From assembly GCA_029932545.1 (NCBI GenBank), contig JAOZPW010000001.1, forward strand, positions 2,006 through 66,005: a stretch of DNA of 64,000 nt, read 5' to 3'. Origin of the DNA: Thermoanaerobaculales bacterium (GTDB taxonomy: Bacteria; Acidobacteriota; Thermoanaerobaculia; Thermoanaerobaculales; Sulfomarinibacteraceae). The translations under genes were made by a program, and so were the position numbers. The notes under the pieces were generated by a model. The model did no database searches. It was not told where the DNA came from and worked only from the letters and a program-made list of their open reading frames with translations. Of the stretch, positions 11,574 through 42,484 are shown in pieces (position 1 is the first letter of the stretch; each line of letters begins with the position of its first letter).

Positions 11574-12326
11574 CTGCCGCAGGTTGATGTGGATCCTAAA
11601 ACCCTTGAAATAGGGATGTTGGCGGATCTCGCAACATCACATCCTCTGTTCGTTTGTGTCTCAATGAAGGCCATGAAGCCTCGGATCGAGTCTACCAGGG
11701 ATCAAAAGAGCCGAAGATCCAGAACCGGCCGCTGGCGCCGCCGCTGCACCCGTCACCGACGCGGTCGCTGTTCCTCATTCTGCCTACTGTCGCCGACTCT
11801 GCCTCTGTCGCTGCGTACTGAACCCGCCGCTGAATCTGCCGCTGTCCCAGACAGCTATCACGGCTTTCCAGCCCCGGCCTTCGGGGGCGCTTCAAGGTTA
11901 CCGTAAGCTCAACGACTGTCGATCGCCCCCGCTCGGTGCATTTTCCTCAAGGGGCTCCGTAACAGAAATCGGGGGGGAACCGCCCCTTGAGGAAAATGAC
12001 CTCGGCAGCCTACACCGTAGGCCGAGACTCGATTGCCGACGGTGCCGCCGTGGGTTGCCCGGTGTCGCCCTTCTTCGCATCGACGGCTCGGTTGGGGGTC
12101 CTGCCCGGTGAAGAGAGGGCGCACCCGGCACTCCCCGTCCAAGAGGGGCACTCCCGGTTTCCAGCGTCACAATAGAGCCTCTTGCAAGACTCCGAGAGTC
12201 ACGATGCGGGGCAGGAGCCCCGCGCTCCAACTTGCATTCCCGGCAAGCCTCTTTGTGGCTATTCCTCTGCGCCTCTGCGTTGATTTCCTGGCCCGAAGGG
12301 CCCCATGCAATTCGTTCGACGAATTG

Positions 12327-15155
12327 CTACAGTATCTCCCGCAAATACACCCCTGTATACGACTTCTCACACTCGGCGACCTGCTCAGGGGTTCCGGCGG
12401 CAACCAGGGTGCCGCCGCCGTCACCGCCTTCGGGGCCCAGGTCGATAATCCAGTCGGCGACCTTGACGACGTCCAAATTGTGTTCGATGACGACGATGGT
12501 ATTGCCTCGATCGACCAGAGCCCGGAGAACACCGAGCAATCTCCGGACGTCGTCAAAATGCAGTCCGGTGGTCGGCTCATCCAAGAGATAGAGGGTTGTC
12601 CCGGTTGCCCTCTTGGCCAACTCTCTCGAGAGCTTGACGCGTTGGGCCTCACCGCCCGAAAGGGTTGTCGCCGCCTGGCCCAGGTGGATATATCCCAATC
12701 CGACGGCGGTCAGGGTGTCGAGGACCCGTTTGACCTTGGGCACCGGATCAAAGACCTCACGGGCCTGGTCGATGGTCAGGTCGAGTACTTCGGCGATGTT
12801 GAGTCCCTTGTATCGGACCTCCAGGGTTTCCCGGTTGTAGCGGGAACCGTGGCAGACATCACAGGTGACGAAGACGTCGGCCAAAAAGTGCATCTCGATA
12901 CGAACCTGCCCCGCTCCCTGACAGGCCTCGCACCGTCCTCCCTTGACGTTGAAGCTGAATCTCCCGGGTTTGTAGCCTCGTGCCCGGGCCTCGGTGGTTC
13001 CGGCAAACAAGGACCGGATCGGGTCAAAGACCTTGGTGTAGGTTGCAGGATTTGACCGGGGCGTACGCCCGATGGGGCTCTGGTCGATAGCGATGACCTT
13101 GTCCAGGTTCTCGGCCCCCTCGATGGTGCCGTGCCTTCCGGGTCGGGCCATTGTCCCGTAGACTTCGCGCGCCACAGCTTTGTGGAGGATCTCATTGACG
13201 AGTGTTGATTTCCCCGACCCGGACACGCCGGTGACGCAGATCAGACACCCCAGGGGAAAGGCGACGTCAACGTCTTTAAGGTTGTGCTCGCGCGCGCCGT
13301 GAATGACCAGGTCTCGGCCGGTCCCGGGGTTTCGATGGGCAGGGACGGGAATCCTCTCGACACCGGACAAGTACCGACCGGTCAGACTCTCGGGGGCCTC
13401 CAGAATTACCTCCAGCGGGCCCTGGGCCACGACTTCGCCACCGTGACGACCAGCGCCAGGACCCATGTCGATCACCCAGTCCGCCTGGCGAATGGACTCT
13501 TCGTCATGTTCGACCACGACCACGGTGTTGCCGAGATCCCGCATGCCGAACAGGGTGTTCAAAAGCCTCTGGTTGTCTCGCTGATGAAGGCCGATCGAAG
13601 GCTCGTCCAATACGTACAAGACTCCCATCAGTTTTGATCCCACCTGGGTCGCTAATCGAATTCGCTGACTTTCGCCCCCAGAGAGCGTTCCTGCCATCCG
13701 GTCAAGACTCAGGTATTCCAGGCCGACCGACTCCAGGAACATCAGGCGGTCTCGGATCTCCCTCAAGACCTTGGTCGCGATCTTCTCGTCCCGGCCGGAC
13801 AGGCTGATGTCGGCAAACCAGGCCCGAGTCCGATGGATCGGCATGGCCGACACCTCGGAGATACCGGCGCCGTCGACGAGAACCGCCAGAGACTCGGGCC
13901 GAAGGCGTGCGCCGTTACACGACGAACAGGTGGTAAATGACATATAGCGCTCGAGCTCTCGCCGAATTTCTTCCGATGCCGTCTCGCCATACCGTCTTTC
14001 GATCCTCGGGACCAGTCCTTCCAATCGGTCCCGGAAGCGGTAGGCGCCCTTCTTGCCCTCCCATACGAAATCGAACTCGTCATCGGACCCGAAAAGAATC
14101 AAGCGGCGAATAGCTTCGGGAAGATCCCGCCACGGCGTTCTCAAGTCAAACCCGAGGGATGTTCCCAGTTGACCCAAGAGCCGACCAAACCACGAGGCGC
14201 CGCCATTGGTGACTGTCGCGAGGCACCCGGCGCCGATCGATCTGGTTGGATCCAGCACCAGCTTTTCGGGGTCGATCTCTCTCAGAAAACCCAGGCCCGA
14301 GCACTTCGGACACGCTCCCTGTGGCGAGTTGAAGGAGAAAAGGCGCGGCGAAACCTCCGACAGAGAAAAGCCACACTCCAAACAGGCCAGGAGCGACGAG
14401 AGTTGCATCTCCGGATGACCTTCGGCGGCAATGCGAACCAACCCCTGACCAACCTTGAGTGCGGTCTCCAGAGATGACGCCAACCGGCTCTTGACACCCT
14501 CCCTGACAGAGAGGCGATCAATGACCACCTCGATCGTATGTTTCCGCTTTTTGTCCAGCTCGGGTCTTTCGGCGATCTCGACAACTTCGCCGTCAACCCG
14601 CGCCCGAACGAATCCCTCCCGCCCCATCTGCTCGAACAGTTTTCGGTGTTCACCCTTGCGGTCCCTGATGAGGGGCGCCAGGACCAAAAACCGGCTGCCG
14701 TCGGGCAGGCCCAGGATCCGATCAACCATCTGGTCAACGGTTTGAGATTGGATCGGCGTGTGATGCACCGGGCAATGCGCCACGCCGATCGAGGCCCACA
14801 GCAGCCTCAGATAATCGTGAATCTCGGTAACGGTTCCGACGGTCGATCGGGGATTTTTTGACGTGGTCTTCTGTTCGATCGAAATGGCGGGGGAAAGACC
14901 TTCGATCAAATCAACGTCGGGCTTCTCCATCTGATCCAGAAACTGCCGGGCGTAGGCCGACAGACTTTCGACATAGCGTCGCTGTCCTTCGGCAAAGAGC
15001 GTATCGAATGCCAGGGAACTCTTGCCGGACCCCGAAACTCCGGTGATGACGACCAGTCGATTCCTGGGAATCGATACGTCGATATTCGCGAGGTTGTGTT
15101 CCCTCGCCCCTCGAATGACGATCTCGTCACGAATGCCGGTCGGCTCATGGTCCAT
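12327..15155 (-). CDS. uvrA: excinuclease ABC subunit A
   Basis: 942-aa ORF with two ABC ATPase modules ([32 protein letters not shown] signatures) and zinc-finger Cys pairs. Confidence 0.97.
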
Positions 15156-15345: not shown

Positions 15346-15810
15346 TCAGGAGTCTCTCTCCTTCATCGCCTGGTCGGCTTCCCGATCCAATGTCCGTTGC
15401 CTCAGGGTCTCCCTCTTGTCGTGGAGTTGCTTGCCCCGGACGAGCGCCACCCGGACCTTGATCCAGTTCCCGTCAAGAACGACTTCGATCGGCACGACGG
15501 TCAGGCCCTTTTCCGCAACCTTGGACGCCAGGCGGAGAATCTGTCGCTTTTCCAAGAGGAGGCGCCGCCGTCTCAAGGGGTCGTGCCCCGAGTAGCCGGC
15601 ATGTTCGTAGGGGCTGATATGACAGCCCACCAGAAACGCTTCACCTCTCTTGAAGTCCACATGGGCCTCTTTGAGGTTGATTCTGCCGGCTCGAATGGCC
15701 TTGACCTCGGTGCCGACCAACTCGATCCCGGCCTCTACCGTCTCCAGAAGGTGGTAGTCGTGCCTGGCCTTCCGGTTGGTGGCTATGACTTTTCGTTGGC
15801 GGTCGACCAC
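15346..15810 (-). CDS. smpB: SsrA-binding protein SmpB
   Basis: 154-aa ORF: IATNRKARHDYHLLETVEAGIELVGTEVKAIR...KRE C-terminal tail. Confidence 0.95.
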   Translation of the reverse strand: MVDRQRKVIATNRKARHDYHLLETVEAGIELVGTEVKAIRAGRINLKEAHVDFKRGEAFLVGCHISPYEHAGYSGHDPLRRRRLLLEKRQILRLASKVAEKGLTVVPIEVVLDGNWIKVRVALVRGKQLHDKRETLRQRTLDREADQAMKERDS

Positions 15811-17992: not shown

Positions 17993-18177
17993 CGCCATGC
18001 CTCTTAATCCGTATTTCTCACCAATGATCTGCTACGGAGCAAAATACGCAATAAGCTGTGGTGTTTTCTTGAATTCGCTCAATCAACATAGTGCGGACTA
18101 TGCCTCATTCGCTCATCCTGCGAAAAACACCACAGCTCACCACGTCTTTCGCACCTCGCGACGAAAACTGGTGAGAA

Positions 18178-20295
18178 ATGCGGATTAACTTCCGGTCCTG
18201 GTATCGATTTCGGAAGGAGAACCGCTTTCTCTTAACCGTTTTTTCCATCATGCTTCTCCTGTCGGCTGGGGCTTTTTTTCTCTCCCAGCGAACCCAGGCG
18301 GCGTCCTCTCAGGAGCTGACCAACCGCCTGCTTCTTTTCGTTCTCTGGTATCTCGATGTTTCTTTGATCCTGGTGCTCTCCTTTATTATTGTTCGGAGCT
18401 TGATCAAGCTTCTGCTGGAGCGTCGCGCCGGCATCCTCGGCGCCCGTTTCAGAACGAAGTTGATCTTGACTTACATCGTCCTGACCTTTGTGCCGGTGAT
18501 CTTTATTTTCCTGATTGCCACAAATCTGCTCCAGCACTCAATTGACCGCTGGTTTTCCTCACCCGTTGAAAATATTCTCCGGGGAGGCCGGAACCTCGCA
18601 GTCGAACTTCGGGAGACGATTGAAGACCGGTTGGAACGCCAGGCAGCCATCGCAGCCGCAGAATTGGAAAAAAGACCACGAGACACCTCTCTGGCCGACC
18701 TTCAGCGAGTGATGGCCGTCGATCTTTTGGCCCTCTTCGACGGTGACATTCTGATTGAATCCGTTGCCGATCCCCGGAAAATTCCGGCGCCCGTGCCCGA
18801 GCTTCGATGGTCGGAACTCGAGACTCAAGGGGTTCGCGTCGATCGATGGCGAGGAGGGCTTCTTATCAGGGCGTGGACCCCGATCGGAACGGACAACAAG
18901 CACATGGTTGTCGGGGCAATCCTCCCCAGCAACCTTCTGCTTCACCTTCAAAGGGCAACCGATGCGGACGCCCAGTTTCAAGAAATGAAGGCCCAACAGG
19001 GTACGGTCACGGCCACCACAATTCTGGTCTTCCTTTCGGTGACGCTGCTCCTTCTGTTCTCTACCGTCTGGCTCGGTTTGTATCTCTCAAAGCGATTCAC
19101 CGAACCGCTCCTCGCCGTCGTTGACGCCACTCGGCGGGTGGCCGAAGGCGATGCCCTGGAAGAGGTTGTCGCCCCCGCTTCGGATGAGGTCGAAGTATTG
19201 GTGGACTCCTTCAACGCAATGGTCCGCCGCGTCCGTTCGACCGAGCAGGAGATTATGTCCTCAAACCAGGAACTGGCCACACTGCTTGCGACAATTCCCA
19301 CAGGAGTCCTGACACTGAGCCCGGACAATGTCCAATTTCGGCCCAATGCCGCTGCTGCCGTGATGCTGGGGCATACGCCGTGGCAACGAACCTGGCAACC
19401 TGTCGATATATTGAAGACAACCGGCCTCGAGGAACTGCGCCTGTATCTTGAAAGCCCTGACCACCACCGACAGCGGCTGGAAATCGATCTGACGGTAGGT
19501 GGTGAAACCTGCCGTGTCGAGGTCTCCCGCCGCCCCCTTGCCGGCGGTGGTTCAGTGGTCGCCATGGACGATCTGACCGAGTTGGTGGCGGCACAGCGTC
19601 AGGCGGCATGGAGTGAGGTCGCCCAACGGATCGCCCATGAGATCAAGAACCCCCTGACACCGATCCGATTGGCTGCCGAACGGGTCCAGCGGCGAGTCGC
19701 CGGTCTGGGAGGAGACCTTGAGCACATTCTCTCGTCCAGTTGTGAGGCGATTATCGCCCATGTCTCCGGGCTCCAGGACCTTGTCAACGCCTTTCACCAG
19801 TATGCGCAGATGCCCACAATCACTCCGCAACCATGGTCGATCAACCGTCTGGTCAATGAGACGGCGGCCCTGTATGTGGATTTTCGGCCAGGGTTGGCGA
19901 TTGTCACCGAGTTACCGGAAGAACCTCTCTGGGCCATGGTGGATCCGGTTCCGTTTCGACAAGCTCTGGTCAATCTCATCGACAACGCGGCTGCGGCCAT
20001 CCCGGGACCGGGACGCATCGATATTCGTGCATGGGCCGACGACACCAGTGCCATACTCGAGATCCTCGACAGTGGTTCCGGGCTCCCAACAGAGGATGTG
20101 CGGGTTCTGACCCAACCGTTCTTTTCGACCAAGGGGCGGGGTTCAGGCATGGGCCTGGCCATTGTCGACCGTATCGTCCGGGATCATGACGGTGTGTTTG
20201 AAATTGGAAACCGTGAAGGGCAGGGTTCTCGAGCACGTATTTCTCTCTTTGGCGCTGTCGTCACCCAACCGGACACTGCCCATGAGTCGGACTGA
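18178..20295 (+). CDS. NtrY-like sensor histidine kinase (TM-HAMP-PAS-HisKA-HATPase)
   Basis: 705-aa ORF with N-terminal TM helices, H-box VAQRIAHEIKNPLTPI, N-box LVNLIDNAA, and G-boxes DSGSGL / GRGSGMGLAIV. Confidence 0.85.
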   Translation: MRINFRSWYRFRKENRFLLTVFSIMLLLSAGAFFLSQRTQAASSQELTNRLLLFVLWYLDVSLILVLSFIIVRSLIKLLLERRAGILGARFRTKLILTYIVLTFVPVIFIFLIATNLLQHSIDRWFSSPVENILRGGRNLAVELRETIEDRLERQAAIAAAELEKRPRDTSLADLQRVMAVDLLALFDGDILIESVADPRKIPAPVPELRWSELETQGVRVDRWRGGLLIRAWTPIGTDNKHMVVGAILPSNLLLHLQRATDADAQFQEMKAQQGTVTATTILVFLSVTLLLLFSTVWLGLYLSKRFTEPLLAVVDATRRVAEGDALEEVVAPASDEVEVLVDSFNAMVRRVRSTEQEIMSSNQELATLLATIPTGVLTLSPDNVQFRPNAAAAVMLGHTPWQRTWQPVDILKTTGLEELRLYLESPDHHRQRLEIDLTVGGETCRVEVSRRPLAGGGSVVAMDDLTELVAAQRQAAWSEVAQRIAHEIKNPLTPIRLAAERVQRRVAGLGGDLEHILSSSCEAIIAHVSGLQDLVNAFHQYAQMPTITPQPWSINRLVNETAALYVDFRPGLAIVTELPEEPLWAMVDPVPFRQALVNLIDNAAAAIPGPGRIDIRAWADDTSAILEILDSGSGLPTEDVRVLTQPFFSTKGRGSGMGLAIVDRIVRDHDGVFEIGNREGQGSRARISLFGAVVTQPDTAHESD

Positions 20296-23028: not shown

Positions 23029-23793
23029 ATGTCTGAGTTTGTTCTGTCGGTTGTCATCCCAGCTTATAACGAAGCCGATCGTCTACCGAAGACACTCGAG
23101 AGCATTGACCTTTTTCTCCTTGAGGCCGAGGACCTCGGGCCGGCCGAGATCATCATCGTGGATGACGGGTCTAAAGACCGAACATCAGAGGTTGGCAATG
23201 CCTTCCAATCCTTCGGAAATACCGTCGTGCGGGTTTTTCGCCACCAAAAGAACCAGGGGAAAGGCGCTGCCGTCCGAACGGGATTCGAACATTCGAAGGG
23301 ACGGCAAGTCCTCCTGTCGGACGCGGACCTTGCCGCTCCGATTGCAGGACTTCGTCGTATGACTCCGGCATACGGTGACTCGACCGTGGTCGTGGGGAGT
23401 CGAGCAGTGGACCGTGCCCTGCTCTTTGATCCTCAACCCCTCTATCGGGACCTGATGGGTCGCGCCTTCAATCTGATGGTCCGGGCTCTTCTGCTCCCGG
23501 GGATATTTGACACACAGTGCGGCTTCAAACTCTTCCCTGGAGGGCTTGCTCGGTCGTTGGCAATGGTCCAACGGACTGATGGTTTTGCTTATGACGTTGA
23601 GTTGTTGGCATTATCCTTGTCCTGGGGTTACAGCATCGTCGAAGTAGGCGTGCCCTGGGGCCATGTTGAGGCCTCCCGAGTACAGCCGGGGAGGCATAGC
23701 GCCCAGATGTTCCGAGATCTCCTAAGAATTTCCCTTCGGCGTTGGTCCCTCGGACTTCCACGTGAGCCGCATGAAGGGGTCTCCCTTGGCTGA
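23029..23793 (+). CDS. family 2 glycosyltransferase (dolichyl/polyprenyl-phosphate glycosyltransferase-like)
   Basis: 254-aa ORF with LSVVIPAYNEADRL, IIIVDDGSKD and LLSDADL motifs. Confidence 0.8.
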   Translation: MSEFVLSVVIPAYNEADRLPKTLESIDLFLLEAEDLGPAEIIIVDDGSKDRTSEVGNAFQSFGNTVVRVFRHQKNQGKGAAVRTGFEHSKGRQVLLSDADLAAPIAGLRRMTPAYGDSTVVVGSRAVDRALLFDPQPLYRDLMGRAFNLMVRALLLPGIFDTQCGFKLFPGGLARSLAMVQRTDGFAYDVELLALSLSWGYSIVEVGVPWGHVEASRVQPGRHSAQMFRDLLRISLRRWSLGLPREPHEGVSLG

Positions 23794-24691
23794 TGCCTGG
23801 TTAAACACGGCCTTTCTTGAGCACCTTGAATGGGAGAGAAATCTGTCACCAGCCACCCTGAAGGCCTACCGCCGAGAGATTGCCAGGGCCGTGGGATTTT
23901 TCTCCAGCGACCTCGGTCTGAAGGACCCGTCGGGGGTCACCCCGGCATCCGTGCGCTCTTTCTTGGCTCATCTCCATGGCCTTGGGCTCAGCCCTCGATC
24001 CACCGAGCGAGCTCTGGCTGCCATAAGAACCTATTTCCGGTTTCTTGTGGTCGAGAATATTCTTTCGGCCAACCCGGCAGACACCGTGGTGCATCCTCAA
24101 CGCCGGCGCCGAGCCCCTCCAGTAACTCCATTGGCCGTCATCGAGGATCTCCTGGAATCCTTTCCGCCAACCCCCGCCGGAATCAGGGATCGCACCCTGG
24201 TGGAGTTTCTCTACGGATCAGGACTCCGGGTCGGGGAACTGGTCGGTCTGGATCTCACCGATCTGCAACTCAAAGCGCGTCTCGTCCGCGTCCGAGGTAA
24301 AGGACGCAAGGAACGTATCGTGCCCTACGGTACCCAGGCCGCAGCTGCACTGAGCACCTACCTCCCCGTCAGGGCTCAGTGGAAACAGGGCGCCACGCTC
24401 TCCACCGAAGCCCTTTTCCTCAACCAACGCGGGGGACGCCTGACTGACCGGTCCGTGCGGAGAATTCTCGCGGCTGCTGTCCTCAAGACCGCGACCCAAC
24501 ACCAAGTGCATCCTCACGCCCTTCGGCACGCTTTTGCTACTCACCTTCTCGAGGCGGGAATGGACCTCCGGGCCATCCAGGAACTCCTGGGCCACGCATC
24601 GTTGGCAACCACCCAGATCTATACAACCGTCGACCTGGCGCACTTGATGACCGTGCATCGCAAGAGTCATCCGAGGTCCCGGAGGAAGTAG
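23762..24691 (+). CDS. tyrosine recombinase XerC/XerD family
   Basis: 309-aa ORF: SPATLKAYRREI, GLRVGELVGLDLTDL, HALRHAFATHLLEAG, LLGHASLATTQIYTHV-like (QIYTTV). Confidence 0.85.
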   Translation: MSRMKGSPLADAWLNTAFLEHLEWERNLSPATLKAYRREIARAVGFFSSDLGLKDPSGVTPASVRSFLAHLHGLGLSPRSTERALAAIRTYFRFLVVENILSANPADTVVHPQRRRRAPPVTPLAVIEDLLESFPPTPAGIRDRTLVEFLYGSGLRVGELVGLDLTDLQLKARLVRVRGKGRKERIVPYGTQAAAALSTYLPVRAQWKQGATLSTEALFLNQRGGRLTDRSVRRILAAAVLKTATQHQVHPHALRHAFATHLLEAGMDLRAIQELLGHASLATTQIYTTVDLAHLMTVHRKSHPRSRRK

Positions 24692-24951
24692 GGACATCGC
24701 GCATTGCCCAAAGGGCAATCACGGCGAAGCCGTGGAGATCGCGAAGCGATCCGCGTGGGCAAAGGACCCGCGCCCAGCCCGAAGGGCTGCCGAGCCGAGA
24801 GGCTCGGACCCGCGAAGCGGGTGGCGTGGGCAGAGGACATCGCGCATTGCCCGAAGGGCAATCACTGCTGTAGAGGCACGGCGTGCCGTGCCCGGGCTTT
24901 TTGGGTTGGCTCTGGTTGTTGAAACACGGGCACGGCACGCCGTGCCCCTAC
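24692..24951. repeat. array of nine abutting GC-rich hairpins including a duplicated 31-bp unit
   Basis: The 31-bp unit GGACATCGCGCATTGCCCRAAGGGCAATCAC occurs at 24692..24722 and 24835..24865. Stem-loops with GAA/AAA/GAGA loops are at 24703-19, 24720-34, 24737-51, 24753-73, 24775-89, 24790-807, 24808-22 and 24846-62. A 25-bp stem (24870..24894 / 24927..24951, one mismatch) follows. Confidence 0.8.
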
Positions 24952-26294
24952 ACACCCCACCCACCAATCAACTCCAGCGCTCTTTCGGCCTGAGCTGCCC
25001 TCCGTTCCCTCTTGGACCGGATTCGTCTCAGGTCTTCGGGGCACCGAAGGAGACCCCATGTAATGTTCGACGGTTGAAAACCTGCCGCCGGCCGCTCCGT
25101 CAAATGGCGTATGAGACCTCCCATGGCCGTTTCCGCAGGAGGCGCCTGGGGAGACTCTCCCTTGAATTCCGACGCGAGGGTTCTTCCCGCCATCAGACCT
25201 GTTGCGGCCGATTCAACATAGCCTTCGACGCCGGTCATCTGGCCGGCGACACGGATGGCCGGCTTTTGTACCAGGCGAAGCAGGGGATCGATGTGGGCCG
25301 GGGCGTTGATATAGGTGTTGCGGTGCACCATGCCAAACCGAGCAAACCGGGCCTCTTCAAGGCCGGGAATCATACGAAGGACCCTCTTCTGCTCGATCTG
25401 CTTCAGTTTGGTCTGAAATCCTACCAAATTCCAATGGTCCGCGGCCAAATCGTCCTGCCGGAGCTGAACAACGGCCCAGGGACGTATACCGGTATTGGGG
25501 TCGATCAAGCCGACCGGCTTCATCGGCCCGAACCGCAGGGTGTCCCGACCTCGTTCGGCCATCACCTCGATCGGCAAACACCCCTCGAAGAACGAGATAT
25601 CCTCCTGTTCGAATTGTTTGAAATCGACCCTCTCTGCAGCCAAAAGTTGGTCAATGAAGGCCTCATACTGCTCTCGGTTCAACGGGGCGTTGAGATAGTC
25701 AGCCCCGTCTCCCTTGTCGTATCGGGAAGCCCTGAAGAGCCGGTCGTGAACCAGTGAATCTGCCGCAACGACCGGTGCCACGGCATCAAAGAAACTCAAG
25801 GCCTCCTCCCCCAACAGCGATTGCAAAGTGGCGTGAAGGCCTGGAGATGTCAGAGGTCCGGTAGAGATAATTGCCGGTCCTTGGGGAAGGTCGAGAACCT
25901 CCATTCGCTCAATCGTTATCAACGGGTGGGAGGAAATCCTCTCGCCCACCCTCTCGGAAAAGAGTGTTCTGTCGACAGCCAGGGCACCCCCAGCCGGAAG
26001 GGCGGTTTCCCGGGCACTCTTGATGATCAGTGATCCCAGACACTCCATTTCTCTCTTGAGCAACCCCACCGCGTTGCCCGGCGAGTCTCCTCGCAGGGAG
26101 TTTGAGCAGACCAGTTCGGCAAAACCATCCGTCGTGTGGACCGGCGTTGTGCGTGTTGGTCTCATTTCAAACAGGCACACAGGCAGACCCGCCTCGGCCA
26201 ACTGCCACGCAGCTTCGCAGCCCGCCAGGCCCGCACCGACAACAGGAATCGCGGCTTCGCCGGCCCTCTTTTCCCTTTCTGAAACCTCAATCAT
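24948..26294 (-). CDS. trmFO: methylenetetrahydrofolate--tRNA-(uracil-5-)-methyltransferase TrmFO
   Basis: 448-aa ORF with FAD-binding VVGAGLAGCEAAWQLA and typical TrmFO/Gid length and motifs. Confidence 0.9.
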   Translation of the reverse strand: MIEVSEREKRAGEAAIPVVGAGLAGCEAAWQLAEAGLPVCLFEMRPTRTTPVHTTDGFAELVCSNSLRGDSPGNAVGLLKREMECLGSLIIKSARETALPAGGALAVDRTLFSERVGERISSHPLITIERMEVLDLPQGPAIISTGPLTSPGLHATLQSLLGEEALSFFDAVAPVVAADSLVHDRLFRASRYDKGDGADYLNAPLNREQYEAFIDQLLAAERVDFKQFEQEDISFFEGCLPIEVMAERGRDTLRFGPMKPVGLIDPNTGIRPWAVVQLRQDDLAADHWNLVGFQTKLKQIEQKRVLRMIPGLEEARFARFGMVHRNTYINAPAHIDPLLRLVQKPAIRVAGQMTGVEGYVESAATGLMAGRTLASEFKGESPQAPPAETAMGGLIRHLTERPAAGFQPSNITWGLLRCPEDLRRIRSKRERRAAQAERALELIGGWGV

Positions 26295-33963: not shown

Positions 33964-37466
<3,503 letters not shown>

Positions 37467-37495
37467 AACTGCCGGTGAGCGTGTAACCCCAAGTT

Positions 37496-38602
37496 CTACT
37501 GCCGCATCGGCATCAGAACGTAGATATACTCCTCAAGACGAGGGTCATCCTCAACCGGAACAACCACCGTCTGCGTATTTCCATCTTTCATCTGCAATTC
37601 AACAACATCAACATCCAGCGCTTGAAGAACATCCATTAAATAAACGGCATTAAGGGCTACATCGATCGATTCACCCTGATACGAGATGGTTAAGATTTCT
37701 TCGGCACTCCCCTTGTCCGACCCCATGGAAATCAACGTCATCTCGCCGGCGCTCGGATCAAAACGGAAACGAACCCCTCGCGCCTTCTCATGCGCCATCA
37801 AACTGACTCGCCGAAGCGATGACAACAGTTCTTGTCGATCTACCCGGGCCCGGTAGGGATTATCTCTGACGATCACCCTTTCATATTGAGGAAAACGGAG
37901 ATCGACAATCCGGGACACCAGTGTCCTGTCTCCCATCCAAAAGCCCATATGGTTTTCTCCAACAGAAATGCGAACATTTTCGTCAGAGAAGCGACTGAAT
38001 TCCGTCAAGAGTTTTCGGGGGAAAAGTTGTTGTTCAAACGGAGGTGTGTCCATCGGCGCTGCAGCCCTGACGACTGCAAGGCGATGTCCGTCGGTAGCGG
38101 CAATTTCTATCTCACCTGGGAGAAGTTTAACCAACGCCCCGTTGAGCTGAAATTTTGGGTCGTCCTTTGTAATTGCAAAATCAATACGCTTCAACATTAA
38201 CTGAAAAAGGTCGAGAGGAAGTTGATAGTCACTGGAATCCGGAACCTCCGGGACAGTCGGATACTCAGCCGGATCGGTTACGGACAAACGCGAATGAAAT
38301 CTTCCACTCGTGATTTCAACGGCATCTCCATCCAATCTCAGAACAAAATCCTCCGCCGGCAAATTGCGCACCAGATTCTGGAAAACCCGATTCTCGAGGG
38401 TCACCCTTCCTCCGGTGTGAACAGCGGCGGCACACTCCGTCAATATTGTCAGGTCAAGATCCGTCGCAACCAACCGAAGACCATCCTCAACCGTCTCGGC
38501 CAGAATGTTTGCAAGAATCGGAATTGTCGTTCGATGTTCGACAACACCCTGCAGAATTGAAAGCTCCTGAAGTACGAGGTTACGCTGTAATTTTACTTCC
38601 AT
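37496..38602 (-). CDS. dnaN: DNA polymerase III beta sliding clamp
   Basis: ORF 37496..38605 (TTG) trimmed to ATG 38602. Three-domain beta-clamp length, ending in MPMRQ. Confidence 0.95.
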   Translation of the reverse strand: MEVKLQRNLVLQELSILQGVVEHRTTIPILANILAETVEDGLRLVATDLDLTILTECAAAVHTGGRVTLENRVFQNLVRNLPAEDFVLRLDGDAVEITSGRFHSRLSVTDPAEYPTVPEVPDSSDYQLPLDLFQLMLKRIDFAITKDDPKFQLNGALVKLLPGEIEIAATDGHRLAVVRAAAPMDTPPFEQQLFPRKLLTEFSRFSDENVRISVGENHMGFWMGDRTLVSRIVDLRFPQYERVIVRDNPYRARVDRQELLSSLRRVSLMAHEKARGVRFRFDPSAGEMTLISMGSDKGSAEEILTISYQGESIDVALNAVYLMDVLQALDVDVVELQMKDGNTQTVVVPVEDDPRLEEYIYVLMPMRQ

Positions 38603-38605
38603 CAA

Positions 38606-38840
38606 CGACTCCTCCGACGAAGGATAATCCCATAATCTGTGTAAAAGCTAACATAAGTATTCATCGTCGTCGAGACAGTGAAAAAGTAGCATAAAGCACG
38701 GAAATGTTCTATCGAAACAAGATAAGGGCTAAAAAACCTGTGTATATTTCTGTGTGTTTTCTGTGGAAGAGGGAGAGTCACCAGCAAAACCCACAGGAAA
38801 ACACAGGTTATTGACATAAAATTCACAGGGGTCTGTGAAA
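38606..38840. other. candidate chromosomal replication origin (oriC), dnaA-dnaN spacer
   Basis: 235-bp AT-rich spacer with at least 8 DnaA-box-like 9-mers ending in CACA (or TGTG on the other strand). Examples: TGTGTAAAA 38638..38646, TGTGTATAT 38739..38747, TGTGGAAGA 38762..38770, AAATTCACA 38819..38827, TGTGAAATC 38834..38842. Confidence 0.6.
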
Positions 38841-40142
38841 TCAGGGGCGCTGAAAATGGTCTGTGAAGGAGGTGAGTGTTGCGTCAAAATCCGGATTGGA
38901 ACGTCTCATTTTTCCAACAGTTTCAACCGCATACATTGCGGTTGAGTGATGTTTGGAAAAAAGGCGGCCGATTTCCGGATAACTGAGATCCAAAAGATCC
39001 CGAATCAGAAACATTGAGACCTGACGAGGAAGAGCGATAGATCGACGATTATTGCGACCTTTGATGTCGGAAACCCGAATACCATAGTGTTGGGCAACGA
39101 ATCGAATAATGTGATTAGGCGTGGTTTCCTGTTCTTCTGGGAGGATATCAAAGAGAGCCTGGCGGACGACGTCGGTAGTCAGGGGTGCGTTTCTCAATTG
39201 GGAAAAAGCAATTGTACGATTGAGGCAACCCTCCAATTCTCGAACGTTGTTTTGAACTTGGCGAGCGATAAAAAGGACGACATCTTCGGGAAGATCCCAT
39301 CCTTGGGCCCGACCCTTCTCTTTCAAAATGGCACAACGGGTTTCAAGGTCAGGAGGTTGGATATCAGTCAGCAGACCCTGCATGAAGCGGGTGCGAAGAC
39401 GTTCTTCGAGTCCCTTGATGTCGGCGGGTCGGCAGTCGGAGGTAAACACAACCTGTCTTCCGGAACTTTGAAGGGTGTTGAAGGTATGGAAAAATTCCTG
39501 CTGTGTTGCTTCCTTGCCGCCAATGAACTGGATGTCATCGACTAAAAGGATGTCCACATCTCTGAAGGTCTGGCGAAACAGGTCAAGATCCTTGGTCTGA
39601 AGACAGTAGATAAACTCATTTACGAACTGTTCGGTAGTCAGGTAAACGACTCGAAGGCCCGGTTTTTTTTCGACGGCCCTATGAGCAACCGCATGGAGCA
39701 GGTGCGTTTTTCCAAGACCGGAGCCCCCATAGATAAACAAGGGATTGTACGTCTCTCCTGGCCGCTCGGCGACGGCTTCTGCAGCCGCACAGGCAAATTG
39801 ATTTGACGGCCCGATGACAAAACGGTCGAAAGTGAAATGAGGAGTCAGGGGCAGCGTTTGTATTCTTCGGGTTGATTCCTTCTGGCTTGGAATCGAGGAC
39901 GGTTGCACTGAACCCAAACGAACTTGGAATTGCCGACCAAAATGGCTCCGGGCTACGGCCTCGAGGTCGCTGATGAGATGGTCCTTGATCCAGTCGAGAA
40001 CGATTGGTTTGTCGGAGGTCAGAACCAGGAGATCCTTTGTTTCCTCTTGAACCTGCAGCGGGGGAACCCAGGTTTCATAATCCTCATCACCGAGCATTTG
40101 GCGGAGGTGCGGTTGAAGTGCAAGCCATTTATTCATAACCAT
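38841..40142 (-). CDS. dnaA: chromosomal replication initiator protein DnaA
   Basis: ORF 38841..40199, start placed at ATG 40142 (MVMNKW...). AAA+ motifs GGSGLGKTHLLHA and LLVDDIQF, with a C-terminal DNA-binding helix region (HSTAMYA). Confidence 0.95.
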   Translation of the reverse strand: MVMNKWLALQPHLRQMLGDEDYETWVPPLQVQEETKDLLVLTSDKPIVLDWIKDHLISDLEAVARSHFGRQFQVRLGSVQPSSIPSQKESTRRIQTLPLTPHFTFDRFVIGPSNQFACAAAEAVAERPGETYNPLFIYGGSGLGKTHLLHAVAHRAVEKKPGLRVVYLTTEQFVNEFIYCLQTKDLDLFRQTFRDVDILLVDDIQFIGGKEATQQEFFHTFNTLQSSGRQVVFTSDCRPADIKGLEERLRTRFMQGLLTDIQPPDLETRCAILKEKGRAQGWDLPEDVVLFIARQVQNNVRELEGCLNRTIAFSQLRNAPLTTDVVRQALFDILPEEQETTPNHIIRFVAQHYGIRVSDIKGRNNRRSIALPRQVSMFLIRDLLDLSYPEIGRLFSKHHSTAMYAVETVGKMRRSNPDFDATLTSFTDHFQRP

Positions 40143-40298
40143 CGGGGAGCTTACCATCAACACGATTAAGGGACACCCCCGCTGATAAAGAAAACACAAA
40201 CCGAAACAAAGGTGGCCCCTTCAGCGGCGTGTAGACTTGACACCCGAGGAGTCCTGCGTTAAGGTTTGCCGCCCTATGTATTTGGAGTGTGATGTATC

Positions 40299-40433
40299 AT
40301 GAAAAGAACATTCCAGCCGAACAACAGGCGCAGGAAGAAAAAACACGGGTTCCGGCTTCGGATGCGGACTCGCAACGGTCGCAAAATTCTCAGAGCGCGA
40401 CGGAGAAAAGGACGCAAGACGATCTCGGCCTGA
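40299..40433 (+). CDS. rpmH: 50S ribosomal protein L34
   Basis: Hand-translated 44-aa ORF, absent from the ORF track: [44 protein letters not shown]. It is hidden in another frame of ORF 40289..40822. Confidence 0.93.
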
Positions 40434-40444
40434 GCGGCCGGGGC

Positions 40445-40822
40445 TTGCCCAAAACACGACGCCTTCGTAAAAGGGCGGATTTCCAAAGGATTTATCGGAA
40501 CGGCATTCGAGTCGTAGGCCGATTTGTTGTGCTGTTTGTGGAAACCGGTCCCTTGGCACAGAGGCGCCTGGGCATTACAGCGTCCCGAAAGATTGGGCCG
40601 GCAGTCACCAGAAATCGATGTAAACGGCGAATTCGAGAGTTGTTTCGATTGAACAGCAGGCTGTTGTTTGGTGGTGACTTTGATATGGTAGTGAATGCCC
40701 GCCGGGGTTGTGCTGATGTGGCCTGGCAGGAAATTTTGCACGATTACACTCGGTGTCTGTCCCGTCTTCATCGGATCCTTGAAGAGAAAGACCGGGGCGA
40801 ACCGACCGCAACCAAGAGGTGA
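40445..40822 (+). CDS. rnpA: ribonuclease P protein component
   Basis: C-terminal ~125 aa of ORF 40289..40822 (LPKTRRLRKRADFQRIYRNG...RNRCKRRIRE). The start is tentatively TTG 40445, just after the rpmH stop. Confidence 0.8.
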   Translation: MPKTRRLRKRADFQRIYRNGIRVVGRFVVLFVETGPLAQRRLGITASRKIGPAVTRNRCKRRIRELFRLNSRLLFGGDFDMVVNARRGCADVAWQEILHDYTRCLSRLHRILEEKDRGEPTATKR

Positions 40823-40825
40823 TCA

Positions 40826-42484
40826 ATGTCGATGGAAAAGCGAATTCTGATCGCCTTTGTGCTGTCAGCCATTATCTTTGCCATATGGTCCATAATCTTT
40901 CCTCCCCCAAAACCGGTCCGCACCAAGGTGGTTGAGACGGCGGTTACGACGGCGGCAAGCACCGTCGACGAAACAGGGGTGATGGAAGAAGGCAGCGTTG
41001 AGACGGCCGCCGTTGCCGGCACACAAAGCCTTCTTGGTGCAACGGGCGGCGGGCAGGCGTTGGTTGTTAAAATGTCCAACGATGTCATGGACATTGCGTT
41101 CAATACGCAAGGTGCGTCTATTGAGAGTTTAGTTCTCAAGAGATTTGATGATGTTGCCGGAGAACCCCTGAATCTGGTTCAGTCTGTCGAACATCCCGAA
41201 AGAACACACCCGCTTCAAATGGTCATTGATGGGTCTCCGGACACACGGGTGTACGAGGCCGTTGAGACCAATGGGCTCCTGACGTTTACCTGGGCGGACG
41301 GAGAGGGTCGGTCGATCATTAAAACAGTCTCGATTGACCAGGGATACGGGCTGAATGTTTCGGTTGAGGTACAAGGCGTCGGCCCCGAGAGCGTGATGAG
41401 TCTCGGTACCGGCATGCGTGATACCGGCCCTGTTGAAAGAGCCAACCGCTTTGCAACCTGGGGCGATGCAACGGTTGTGACGGTTGAGGACAAGGAAGAT
41501 TACCGCCGAGAAAAGGTCGACGGCTCTGTTTCGGTTCAGGGAACCGGCTTGAGGTTTACGGGCTTTGAAGACACCTATTTTCTCAGCGTCTTCCGTGCCG
41601 AAGAAGGCGTGTCAAAGGTCGTAATTAACAAACTTTCTCTAACCGAGACCGACGACAAGGGAGAGGTGGTTGATCTTCCGGTTCTTCGTGTCGATATCGT
41701 CTCGTCTTCGGGCTTGTTCAAAGGAGAGCTTTTCTCCGCGCCGAAGGAATTTGACCTCTTACAGAAAGAAGGTGGGGGGCTGGAAGAGACCCTGCATTTT
41801 GGGATTTTCCATCCGATCGCAGTATTTTTTCTTAAAGTCTTGCGATGGATTTTTGGTTATGTCGGCAACTGGGGTTGGGCCATTGTGCTTCTGACGGTGG
41901 CCATTCGTATGGCGCTCTTTCCCTTGATGCACAAGTCGACGGTGTCGATGCGCCGGATGCAGAAGGTTCAGCCCAAGGTCAAGGCGATTCAGGAGAAGTA
42001 CAAGAAAAACAAAACCGACCCCCAAGTCCGGCAAAAAATGAACCAGGAGACGATGGCGCTCTACAAAGAAGAGGGGGTCAACCCGGTGGGAGGGTGTCTC
42101 CCAATGTTGGTGCAAATGCCAATTCTCTTCGCACTTTACACGTTATTCGCCCACGCGATTGAGCTCCGGCATGCCCCGTTTATCTGGTGGATTACCGATC
42201 TCAGCGCGAAGGATCCGATTTACATCACACCAGTGTTAATGACGGCAACGATGTGGTTACAGCAACGCTTGGCGCCACAGGCCGGGGATCCCAACCAGAT
42301 GCGCATGATGCGCATGATGCCGCTGGTCTTTGGAATTATGTTTCTTGGTTTTCCCGCCGGTTTGGTGCTGTATTGGTTGACCAATAATGTGGTTTCGATC
42401 CTTCAGCAAGAGGTTACACTTCACCTGGTAGGTGAGCGAAAACGGCCTGGCGGCGGGCGGCGGCAGGCGAAGGGGAAAAAGTAA
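40826..42484 (+). CDS. yidC: membrane protein insertase YidC
   Basis: 552-aa ORF with an N-terminal TM, a periplasmic domain, and a conserved C-terminal core (GWAIVLLTVAIRMALFPL, GCLPMLVQMPILFALY). Confidence 0.93.
   Translation: MSMEKRILIAFVLSAIIFAIWSIIFPPPKPVRTKVVETAVTTAASTVDETGVMEEGSVETAAVAGTQSLLGATGGGQALVVKMSNDVMDIAFNTQGASIESLVLKRFDDVAGEPLNLVQSVEHPERTHPLQMVIDGSPDTRVYEAVETNGLLTFTWADGEGRSIIKTVSIDQGYGLNVSVEVQGVGPESVMSLGTGMRDTGPVERANRFATWGDATVVTVEDKEDYRREKVDGSVSVQGTGLRFTGFEDTYFLSVFRAEEGVSKVVINKLSLTETDDKGEVVDLPVLRVDIVSSSGLFKGELFSAPKEFDLLQKEGGGLEETLHFGIFHPIAVFFLKVLRWIFGYVGNWGWAIVLLTVAIRMALFPLMHKSTVSMRRMQKVQPKVKAIQEKYKKNKTDPQVRQKMNQETMALYKEEGVNPVGGCLPMLVQMPILFALYTLFAHAIELRHAPFIWWITDLSAKDPIYITPVLMTATMWLQQRLAPQAGDPNQMRMMRMMPLVFGIMFLGFPAGLVLYWLTNNVVSILQQEVTLHLVGERKRPGGGRRQAKGKK

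Follow-up and report, generated by a model that had tools for sequence, protein, structure and literature searches.

Within a 64-kb stretch of a Thermoanaerobaculales genome (64,000 nt of contig JAOZPW010000001.1, here called the window), the spacer between a tyrosine recombinase gene, xerC, and the convergent gene trmFO (window 24688-24952) is filled with stem-loops nearly throughout. DprA lies behind trmFO. The fold z-scores of the spacer were -7.72 for the + strand and -8.97 for the - strand, with none of 200 shuffled sequences folding as well, and 9 of the 65 perfect short hairpins (at least 6 bp) of the window fall inside this 250-nt stretch. We regard it as quite probable that the spacer is a mosaic cluster of dispersed non-coding repeat modules, similar to repetitive extragenic palindromes (REPs) and bacterial interspersed mosaic elements (BIMEs), and not a locus-specific device. 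The genes and stem-loops are as follows.

23762-24691, + strand: XerC/D-type tyrosine recombinase gene (xerC)
24703-24719: hairpin ATTGCCC-AAA-GGGCAAT
24720-24734: hairpin CACGGC-GAA-GCCGTG
24737-24751: hairpin GATCGC-GAA-GCGATC
24775-24789: hairpin CAGCCC-GAA-GGGCTG
24790-24807: hairpin CCGAGCC-GAGA-GGCTCGG
24808-24822: hairpin ACCCGC-GAA-GCGGGT
24846-24862: hairpin ATTGCCC-GAA-GGGCAAT
24869-24899 and 24922-24952: arms of a long terminal hairpin (31 nt, 90% complementary, 22-nt loop)
24948-26294, - strand: TrmFO/GIDA-family protein gene (trmFO)

An initial annotation, made from the letters of the sequence alone, had drawn attention to this spacer. The hairpins that it listed are real, each lying where it had been placed, and the neighbors, which it gave as a xerC/D-like gene and trmFO, were confirmed as encoding an XerC/D-type recombinase and a TrmFO/GIDA-family protein. 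It had also described a 25-bp stem with one mismatch over the trmFO stop codon; repeat-pair analysis recovered this stem as the core of the long terminal hairpin, covering the stop codon at 24948-24950. The 31-bp unit that it saw duplicated is the 31-mer GGACATCGCGCATTGCCCRAAGGGCAATCAC, which is indeed present twice, 143 bp apart, against a chance expectation of 0. The heptamer GCGAAGC, counted twice at the time, has three occurrences in the array (24724, 24741, and 24812), and it is not enriched across the window, with 8 occurrences on the + strand and 3 on the - strand versus about 5 expected per strand. What did not hold was the division into nine abutting, independent hairpins: the hairpins are present, but the array was found to have a period of 71 to 72 nt (repeat families D1 and D3). 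Its first part is a 72-nt unit repeated two and a half times head to tail, as A, B, and a truncated A; a second module, C, comes after it as an inverted pair.

24688-24691, + strand: GTAG terminus of the first unit; the TAG at 24689-24691 is the xerC stop codon, and the open reading frame (ORF) ends at 24691
24692-24763, + strand: unit 1, type A, 72 nt, with leader GGACAT and hairpins ATTGCCC-AAA, CACGGC-GAA, and GATCGC-GAA
24764-24834, + strand: unit 2, type B, 71 nt, with hairpins CAGCCC-GAA, CCGAGCC-GAGA, and ACCCGC-GAA and a closing stem of 7 to 8 bp
24835-24868, + strand: truncated unit 3 (A'), which keeps the leader, the 5' closing strand, and hairpin ATTGCCC-GAA-GGGCAAT
24870-24892, + strand: REP-like module C, + copy, GTAG-A-hairpin GGCACGG-CGTG-CCGTGCC, with 1 mismatch to GTAGGGGCACGGCGTGCCGTGCC
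24893-24927, no strand: 35-nt spacer between the inverted C modules, with TTTTT at 24898-24902
24928-24951, - strand: REP-like module C, - copy, an exact match to GTAGGGGCACGGCGTGCCGTGCC (0 mismatches), with GTAG running from 24951 to 24948
24869-24952, no strand: REPIN-like doublet (inverted REP pair), a head-to-head (HH) dimer with GTAG outward, whose C modules pair as a 25- to 31-bp hairpin (repeat pair I1 and fold predictions)

A full unit consists of a closing stem, CGCGC/GCGTG with a G.T pair, that encloses three adjacent hairpins with purine (RRA) triloops. The closing stem and the three hairpins were predicted for each full unit with RNA parameters and with DNA parameters, and the fold of unit 1 is cloverleaf-like under both. 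With a covariance model, R1, built on type-A units, unit 1 scored 97.4 bits on the + strand versus 10.9 bits on the - strand. Unit 2 repeats the architecture of unit 1 with all three stem sequences different (63.6 bits; minimum free energy of -50.1 kcal/mol, z = -6.1). The truncated unit 3 is the second copy of a 31- to 34-bp direct repeat (family D2, 94%) and matched the 5' part of all type-A units by BLAST. The stem GCGTGGG-N7-CCCGCGC of the initial annotation can be found in the sequence, but it is an alternative pairing across the junction of units 1 and 2; the pairing that is conserved across the family is the closing stem CGCGC/GCGTG around each unit. The same order of modules (A unit, degenerate C on the + strand, spacer, C on the - strand) was seen at one other locus, L034. 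Three readings of the unit were tried and rejected. A tRNA-like element, in view of the 72-nt cloverleaf, was dismissed because the tRNA model has no match in the region and the loops are triloops; a CsrA-type GGA-loop decoy because the loops, which can be GGA, GAA, or AAA, are constrained triloops; and a coding tandem repeat because unit 2 has 71 nt despite the 72-nt period and the copies are intergenic. An Rfam scan, which had been proposed together with the initial annotation, gave no relevant family: with Rfam 15 at the gathering threshold the window yielded only three tRNAs, and at E values up to 10 there was only a far-sub-threshold resemblance of the long hairpin to miRNA precursors.

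Evidence for our interpretation comes from the distribution of the modules. An exact scan for a 22-nt core pattern, with one genome per species, yielded 24 loci. Fifteen of these are contigs of six Acidobacteriota metagenome-assembled genomes (MAGs) labelled Thermoanaerobaculia, Thermoanaerobaculales, Holophagae, or Acidobacteriota. By blastn, five of the six (the Holophagae/Thermoanaerobaculia MAGs CBDTUG01, JAUXDC01, DAOWGJ01, JAIOSJ01, and JBDLIO01) contain full units, and L015 is the only Acidobacteriota locus lacking one; the loci from other phyla have only the first palindrome in common and contain no full unit. A metagenome scan added 13 further contigs, and no copy was found in the viral contigs scanned. 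Model R1 recognized 36 units in 27 loci. With filters off, the matches of R1 in the window were only the three units of this array, at 97 and 64 bits on the + strand and about 10 bits on the reverse strand. Type-A units are about 91% identical between different MAGs. Type-B relatives were found at L026:15-85, L031:1-63, L010:4782-4818, and L016:2428-2484. These comparisons suggest a family specific to the Holophagae/Thermoanaerobaculia clade of the Acidobacteriota, and a literature search found no published description of it.

In all, the unit occupies about 17 to 20 independent, unrelated intergenic sites in the window, the five MAGs, and the metagenomes. The genes beside the copies are unrelated housekeeping genes, including those for a TPR protein, a Zn-dehydrogenase, a sigma-54 regulator, a secreted protease, AroB, CysS, aldehyde:ferredoxin oxidoreductase (AOR), PrmC, and an ABC transporter, and only the window and its ortholog, L006, have a unit beside xerC. 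Outside the sites that abut a TAG stop codon, the orientation of units relative to genes is mixed, and some lie in promoter-side spacers. Between 3 and 6 units were seen per fragmentary MAG, which is a lower bound. Several units lie at contig ends, and an exact look-up found the identical XerC only on a 1.6-kb Logan contig that stops exactly at the junction of units 1 and 2; such breaks are the usual signature of an assembly-breaking repeat. An exact look-up of the TrmFO protein returned no record. The initial annotation had held that motifs abundant at many convergent gene ends, or an array not conserved as a unit, would argue against a function specific to this locus; the motifs do recur at many gene ends, and the array is not kept whole. 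A further composite was noted in DAOWGJ01, where L008:6960-7140 and L018:1860-2040 are paralogous copies: an A unit follows ...GGCAAGGSTTTCCGCGRAGTCGTACTTAG, and a common stretch of about 70 nt (GGTACGTCGCACAAGG...GCCGTTTCCGGACGGGAAC) comes after it. The foot of this composite is TTAG, not GTAG.

The dispersed distribution also bears on whether the spacer is simply an outsized intrinsic terminator that evolved locally and serves the convergent genes xerC and trmFO in both directions. Both the convergent arrangement and the hairpin at 24875-24892, which is followed by CGGGCTTTTT, would suit such a role, and this is the only terminator-like site in 24400-25200 (0.6 expected by chance). However, units A and B have no T runs and recur at nonconvergent sites, including upstream of genes, and the terminator scan found no T run on the - strand after the - copy of module C. 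Moreover, the modules recur at unrelated loci with about 91% identity and are therefore not of local origin, and the dispersed distribution already contradicts this explanation, which we consider extremely unlikely. Most of the array is not an intrinsic terminator; the + copy of module C alone has the features of one.

We also noted that the outward GTAG termini of the array contain the TAG stop codons of both flanking genes, that of trmFO being TAG 24950 to 24948 within the GTAG of the - copy of module C. In nearly all family copies, the GGACAT of the first unit comes directly after GTAG or TAG, and internal units carry AAAG or AGAG in place of GTAG. In four unrelated gene families, the unit starts 0 to 1 nt after a co-oriented ORF that uses the TAG of GTAG as its stop codon. 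GTAG also precedes first units that do not abut any gene, and it therefore belongs to the element. As 21 of 56 long ORFs here end in TAG, a common stop codon, it is the conserved GTAG and not codon rarity that carries the argument. The effect on the protein can be seen in TrmFO, which ends ...IGGWGV* in the window and continues ...IGRWGESMGGDLILDT* in the L006 ortholog; therefore, homology stops at the module C boundary, and module C supplies a new stop codon. The orientation of units relative to genes was discounted as evidence for an RNA function, as an abutting TAG stop codon is observable only in the sense orientation. At three sites (L030, L002, and the window), a stop codon precedes the unit and a hairpin with a T run follows it, an arrangement from which it appears very likely that the units are transcribed within 3' untranslated regions (UTRs).

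In order to assess whether the predicted structure is maintained, we used an alignment of the 36 units fitted to the model; a MAFFT alignment of 16 units gave the same picture. Standard pairs occupy 96.8% of cells, compared with 27 to 40% when the partners are slid by 1 to 3 columns. Changes on both sides were found in 12 of 24 pairs, none of 500 shuffles reached the observed values, and all three stems of the unit covary. Type-B units (unit 2 of the window and those of L026, L031, L010, and L016) have all three stems changed, with the loops and the closing stem kept. G.T/T.G pairs outnumber A.C/C.A pairs by 37 to 5, or by 12 to 5 without the invariant closing-stem pair, and therefore the structure belongs to the + strand. 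The structure of the unit is strand specific and is kept by compensatory changes.

The unit has GGA, GAA, or AAA loops, of which about 80% conform to G-N-A with a C-G closing pair (29 of 35 in hairpin 1, 22 of 35 in hairpin 2, and 30 of 35 in hairpin 3). The c-GNA-g loop is the motif of extraordinarily stable DNA mini-hairpins (PMC13037366, PMC3201870). The array resembles the d(GCGAAGC)/c-GNA-g mini-hairpins in most unit loops and in its three occurrences of GCGAAGC, but these are a biophysical motif and not a family of genetic elements; the loops would indicate only that the + strand folds very stably as DNA, not that it does so in vivo. Elsewhere in the window, c-GNA-g hairpins are scattered. 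A single-stranded-DNA element had been one suggestion of the initial annotation, and the loops are compatible with it, yet the structures fit RNA equally well. A narrower version, in which the structure matters to the host as single-stranded DNA (in fold-back priming, in recombination, or as an Xer- or integron-type site tied to the xerC-like gene), draws on the same c-GNA-g triloops, on the tolerance of G.T pairs in DNA, and on the equally good folding of the unit with DNA parameters. DNA and RNA folding are computationally indistinguishable, however. The link to xerC is coincidental, the other 17 or so sites lying beside unrelated genes; neither attC-like nor dif-like features are present, and the units are not separated by gene cassettes; and the structured strand is apparently on the leading-strand template, which is a weak point. 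We consider this version very unlikely. Its most specific form, an attC or dif site linked to the recombinase, was rejected, as other copies flank unrelated genes.

Comparison of loci showed that the unit behaves as a discrete segment. In several loci, it sits midway in an element of about 250 nt, a long palindrome with 21-nt terminal inverted repeats (TIRs). The window contains a related element at 18004-18188 (reading on the - strand), a long palindrome of 185 nt with TIRs of 21 to 23 nt, TTAATCCGTATTTCTCACCAATG ... ACTGGTGAGAAATGCGGATTAA. It is of the same family as the composites in L001, L007, L022, L025, and L029 and is without the central 72-nt unit; it therefore provides an "empty" reference for the cassette. 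Judged by its sequence, this element is similar to miniature inverted-repeat transposable elements (MITEs). Relative to it, the composites of L025, L029, L001, and L007 share one point at which they are longer by a net 72 nt, with no duplication of the target: the sequence is ...CACTATGTT/GATTGAG... (the slash marks the junction) in the empty copy and ...CACTATGTAG[GGACAT...GGGCAG]GATCGAG... in filled copies. The 72-nt unit is thus a discrete cassette, movable or duplicable, that is present or absent inside another repeat. The unit itself does not have the hallmarks of a MITE, with no TIRs and no duplication in the comparison of empty and filled copies.

Copy number also changes between orthologous loci. 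A comparison of the spacer with relatives had been called for by the initial annotation, and the ortholog L006, which is about 92% identical over 7.7 kb of synteny, keeps only unit 1 (70 of 72 positions identical). Beyond this unit the sequence diverges completely, and unit B, the truncated A, and both C modules are absent, so that the window has 2.5 units plus the REP pair versus 1.2 units in L006. Similarly, L002 has one unit versus at least 2.4 in L021. At L028:1946-2010, a partial internal duplication gives a second copy of hairpin 3 and of the 3' closing strand ahead of module C, which shows that sub-unit duplications also enlarge the mosaic.

The units themselves are well conserved. Orthologous units are 89 to 99% identical, compared with 54 to 85% at third codon positions of flanking genes and 62 to 87% in the adjacent spacer; the unit of L028 is 98.6% identical to that of L027, and the corresponding third codon positions are 72% and 61% identical. 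This conservation would reflect either purifying selection, or homogenization, or recent renewal of copies. Under the first of these, the 72-nt unit would be primarily a host-functional, strand-specific module, for example a protein-bound RNA element of 3' UTRs, recruited at many genes. Consistent with such a function, orthologous units are more conserved than synonymous sites and neighboring spacer, the three stems covary, the RRA loops and the G.U-containing closing stem are conserved, and the unit lies between stop codon and terminator at three independent sites. On the other hand, the number of copies is variable and L006 has lost most of the array, units also occur inside another repeat, in either orientation, and in promoter-side spacers, high conservation is also expected from homogenization or recent spread, and there is no Rfam family. 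On balance, this explanation seems unlikely. Framed more broadly, the proposal that the cassette, with the invariant G.U pair of its closing stem and its c-GNA-g triloops, is a strand-specific functional module of a new class and not a passive relative of REPs has a small but real probability. It would be either a protein-bound 3'-UTR element acting in mRNA stability or translation termination at many genes or the folded single-stranded-DNA substrate of an acidobacterial HUH enzyme of a new sort, one recognizing a cloverleaf of several hairpins where others recognize a single REP hairpin.

The repeats that the spacer most resembles are the GTAG REPs described by Di Nocera et al. in 2013 (PMC3733652). 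GTAG REPs have termini that in many cases give a TAG stop codon to flanking ORFs, their stems have frequent G-T pairs, their subfamilies differ by complementary stem changes, and they lie mostly downstream of ORFs (PMC3733652). They occur as singletons, as HH dimers with GTAG outward and spacers of 20 to 100 bp, and in mosaic clusters, and they can be inserted within longer palindromes; HH dimers are the commonest arrangement, and head-to-tail arrays are rare (PMC3733652). Under the REP rules of Quentin et al. from 2018 (PMC6006769), GT[AG]G stands 0 to 2 nt from a fully paired stem of 7 to 20 bp with a GC-rich base and a loop of 2 to 5 nt. Both copies of module C (24870-24892 on the + strand and 24951-24928 on the - strand) have GTAG plus 1 nt before the stem, and the stem GGCACGG/CCGTGCC has 7 bp, with G or C at 3 of its first 4 bases and the loop CGTG. 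Two inverted REPs with a short spacer that form one long hairpin define a REPIN (Bertels and Rainey 2011, PMC3116915), and the C pair of the window has this form.

The likeness to GTAG REPs and REPINs thus extends to the build of module C, the HH dimer with its 35-nt spacer, the TAG stop codons, the G.T pairs, the subfamilies set apart by complementary changes in their stems, the positions downstream of ORFs, between convergent genes, and within or beside other palindromic repeats, and the variable composition of clusters. The difference is that the dominant module here is a 72-nt, three-hairpin cassette arranged head to tail. Of the possibilities raised in the initial annotation, a BIME- or REP-like composite is favored by the modules at about 17 to 20 unrelated sites, by the mosaic structure, and by the agreement of module C with the GTAG REP rules; a locus-specific structured RNA is disfavored by the lack of an Rfam match and by the absence of most of the array from L006. 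One other site in the window, 15611-15628 on the + strand (GTAG-GGGCTG-ATATGA-CAGCCC), combines GTAG with a hairpin; it is the sole such site besides the two C modules. We rejected the idea that the structures are a general trait of gene ends in this genome, as the window shows no enrichment of GTAG-tagged hairpins (3 sites, of which 2 are in this array).

Other families of repeats are more distant. The BIMEs of Escherichia coli are mosaics of REPs (types Y and Z) and linker motifs, and in their tandem arrays the inverted REPs alternate. The spacer shares with them the mosaic of palindromic units, the variable combination and copy number, the position at 3' gene ends, and the tandem amplification at some loci, but there is no sequence relationship, and the arrays here are direct repeats of a multihairpin unit. 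By this comparison, the array is an analogue of the BIME and not a member. Mycobacterial interspersed repetitive units (MIRUs) and the BOX elements of pneumococcus are head-to-tail intergenic modules of 40 to 100 nt with strain-variable copy number. MIRUs are co-oriented with flanking genes and overlap stop codons, and BOX has a modular A-Bn-C architecture and stable predicted folds. In these traits the elements are like the array; the differences are that they are unrelated in sequence and belong to other phyla, that MIRUs are not hairpin cassettes, and that BOX has no GTAG foot. Closer in phylogeny, the Acidobacteria are known for genes of terminal inverted repeat-associated tyrosine transposases (TIRYTs) and for class 3 TnpA(Y1) genes with atypical structures (PMC6006769, PMC3733652). 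The class 3 structures have a CnGA foot and no GT[AG]G (PMC6006769) and number about 600 copies in Solibacter usitatus. The repeats associated with class 3 TnpA(Y1) and TIRYT genes are like the present family in their phylum, in being dispersed DNA secondary structures that form dimers and clusters, and in presumed handling by Y1 HUH enzymes. The class 3 structures differ in the CnGA foot and in coming from Terriglobia-type genomes, whereas the present family is from Holophagae and Thermoanaerobaculia; they are set apart here by description, not by sequence. GTAG REPs have been reported from Proteobacteria, Cyanobacteria, Chloroflexi, and the Planctomycetes-Verrucomicrobia-Chlamydiae (PVC) group but not from Acidobacteria (PMC3733652). 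What is new is an undescribed family, a new clade, and a triple-hairpin variant that amplifies in tandem; it is not a new kind of system.

Several observations weigh against classing the spacer as a REP/BIME-like mosaic. Units A and B do not conform to the strict REP rules, as 6 nt separate GTAG from the closing stem and 11 nt separate it from hairpin 1, and each unit has three hairpins, with stems of 6 to 7 bp and 3-nt loops, instead of one. Head-to-tail arrays are rare among the REPs described (PMC3733652). The number of copies per genome is only a lower bound, 3 to 6 units, and the density is one site in the 64-kb window. Module C was found at two kinds of site only, in loci that had been chosen for unit A. 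The window and all loci, about 270 kb and far too small a sample to be informative, yielded no Y1 transposase; over this sample, scans for HUH...Y motifs gave no ORF, and the best tblastn match of E. coli RayT (E = 0.48) was to a spurious ORF. The conservation of the unit above that of third codon positions suggests constraint, or homogenization, beyond what is expected of passive selfish DNA. The local GC skew would assign the structured strand of the unit to the leading-strand template, contrary to the IS608-type expectation, although this replication-strand argument is one data point confounded by gene orientation, and we judged it too weak. Finally, any effects on transcription, RNA folding, and expression are proposals.

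If the spacer is a mosaic of dispersed repeats, its modules may spread or duplicate as folded single-stranded DNA. The agent would most likely be a Y1 HUH transposase of the REP-associated tyrosine transposase (RAYT) or TIRYT type, acting at the GTAG foot, and slippage or recombination could lengthen the tandem arrays. Modules already in place would be transcribed as 3' UTRs of xerC and trmFO. The + copy of the C hairpin with its run of five T residues may end the xerC transcript, and the cloverleaf units and the long hairpin could act as barriers to 3'-exonucleases, thereby stabilizing the upstream messages. The modules may, in addition, damp translation termination, because both stop codons lie within or beside stable structure; E. 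coli REPs close to stop codons reportedly impede termination (Liang, Rudd and Deutscher 2015).

It follows from the preferred interpretation, a mosaic of REP/BIME-like modules, that no locus-specific riboregulator or exotic DNA device is needed between xerC and trmFO. It would extend GTAG-tagged REP/REPIN-like repeats to Acidobacteriota of the Holophagae/Thermoanaerobaculia, from which they were not reported in PMC3733652, and would define an atypical relative of these repeats, in which a cassette of 72 nt with three hairpins is amplified in head-to-tail arrays, is inserted as one discrete piece, and provides genes with stop codons. There are also practical consequences. The repeats break short-read assemblies of such MAGs, with contigs ending inside units, they alter annotated C termini, such as that of TrmFO, and they could serve as copy-number markers in the manner of variable-number tandem repeats (VNTRs). 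If the cassette is under selection, it would offer a tractable case for comparing selfish replicators with host-recruited 3'-UTR modules among REP-like elements.

Three other features of the window were noted. The GC skew of the + strand is negative over 1 to 38 kb and positive over 39 to 64 kb, flipping at about 37000-41000, where gene orientation also flips from - to + and the GC content dips to 47 to 48%. E. coli-type DnaA boxes are absent, with 1 match at up to 1 mismatch versus 8 expected. The region could be a replication origin, or the skew could reflect only gene-strand bias. An intergenic stretch at 12175-12230, CTTGCAAGACTCCGAGAGTCACGATGCGGGGCAGGAGCCCCGCG, which includes the hairpin GCGGGGC-AGGA-GCCCCGC, is about 82% identical between genomes (L030:5903-5957). 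It had no Rfam match and may represent a promoter, a leader, or a small RNA. Last, the hairpin GGCCC-GAA-GGGCC at 12290-12302, which the initial annotation had thought related to the array, does exist but is not a member of the unit family. It lies just after a second hairpin, GCAATTCGT-TCG-ACGAATTGC, the two together spanning 12290-12329, and this second hairpin directly follows the TAG stop codon (within GTAG) of a 942-aa ORF on the - strand. Neither hairpin matched the unit model or module C, and the pair is probably a local 3'-end structure.

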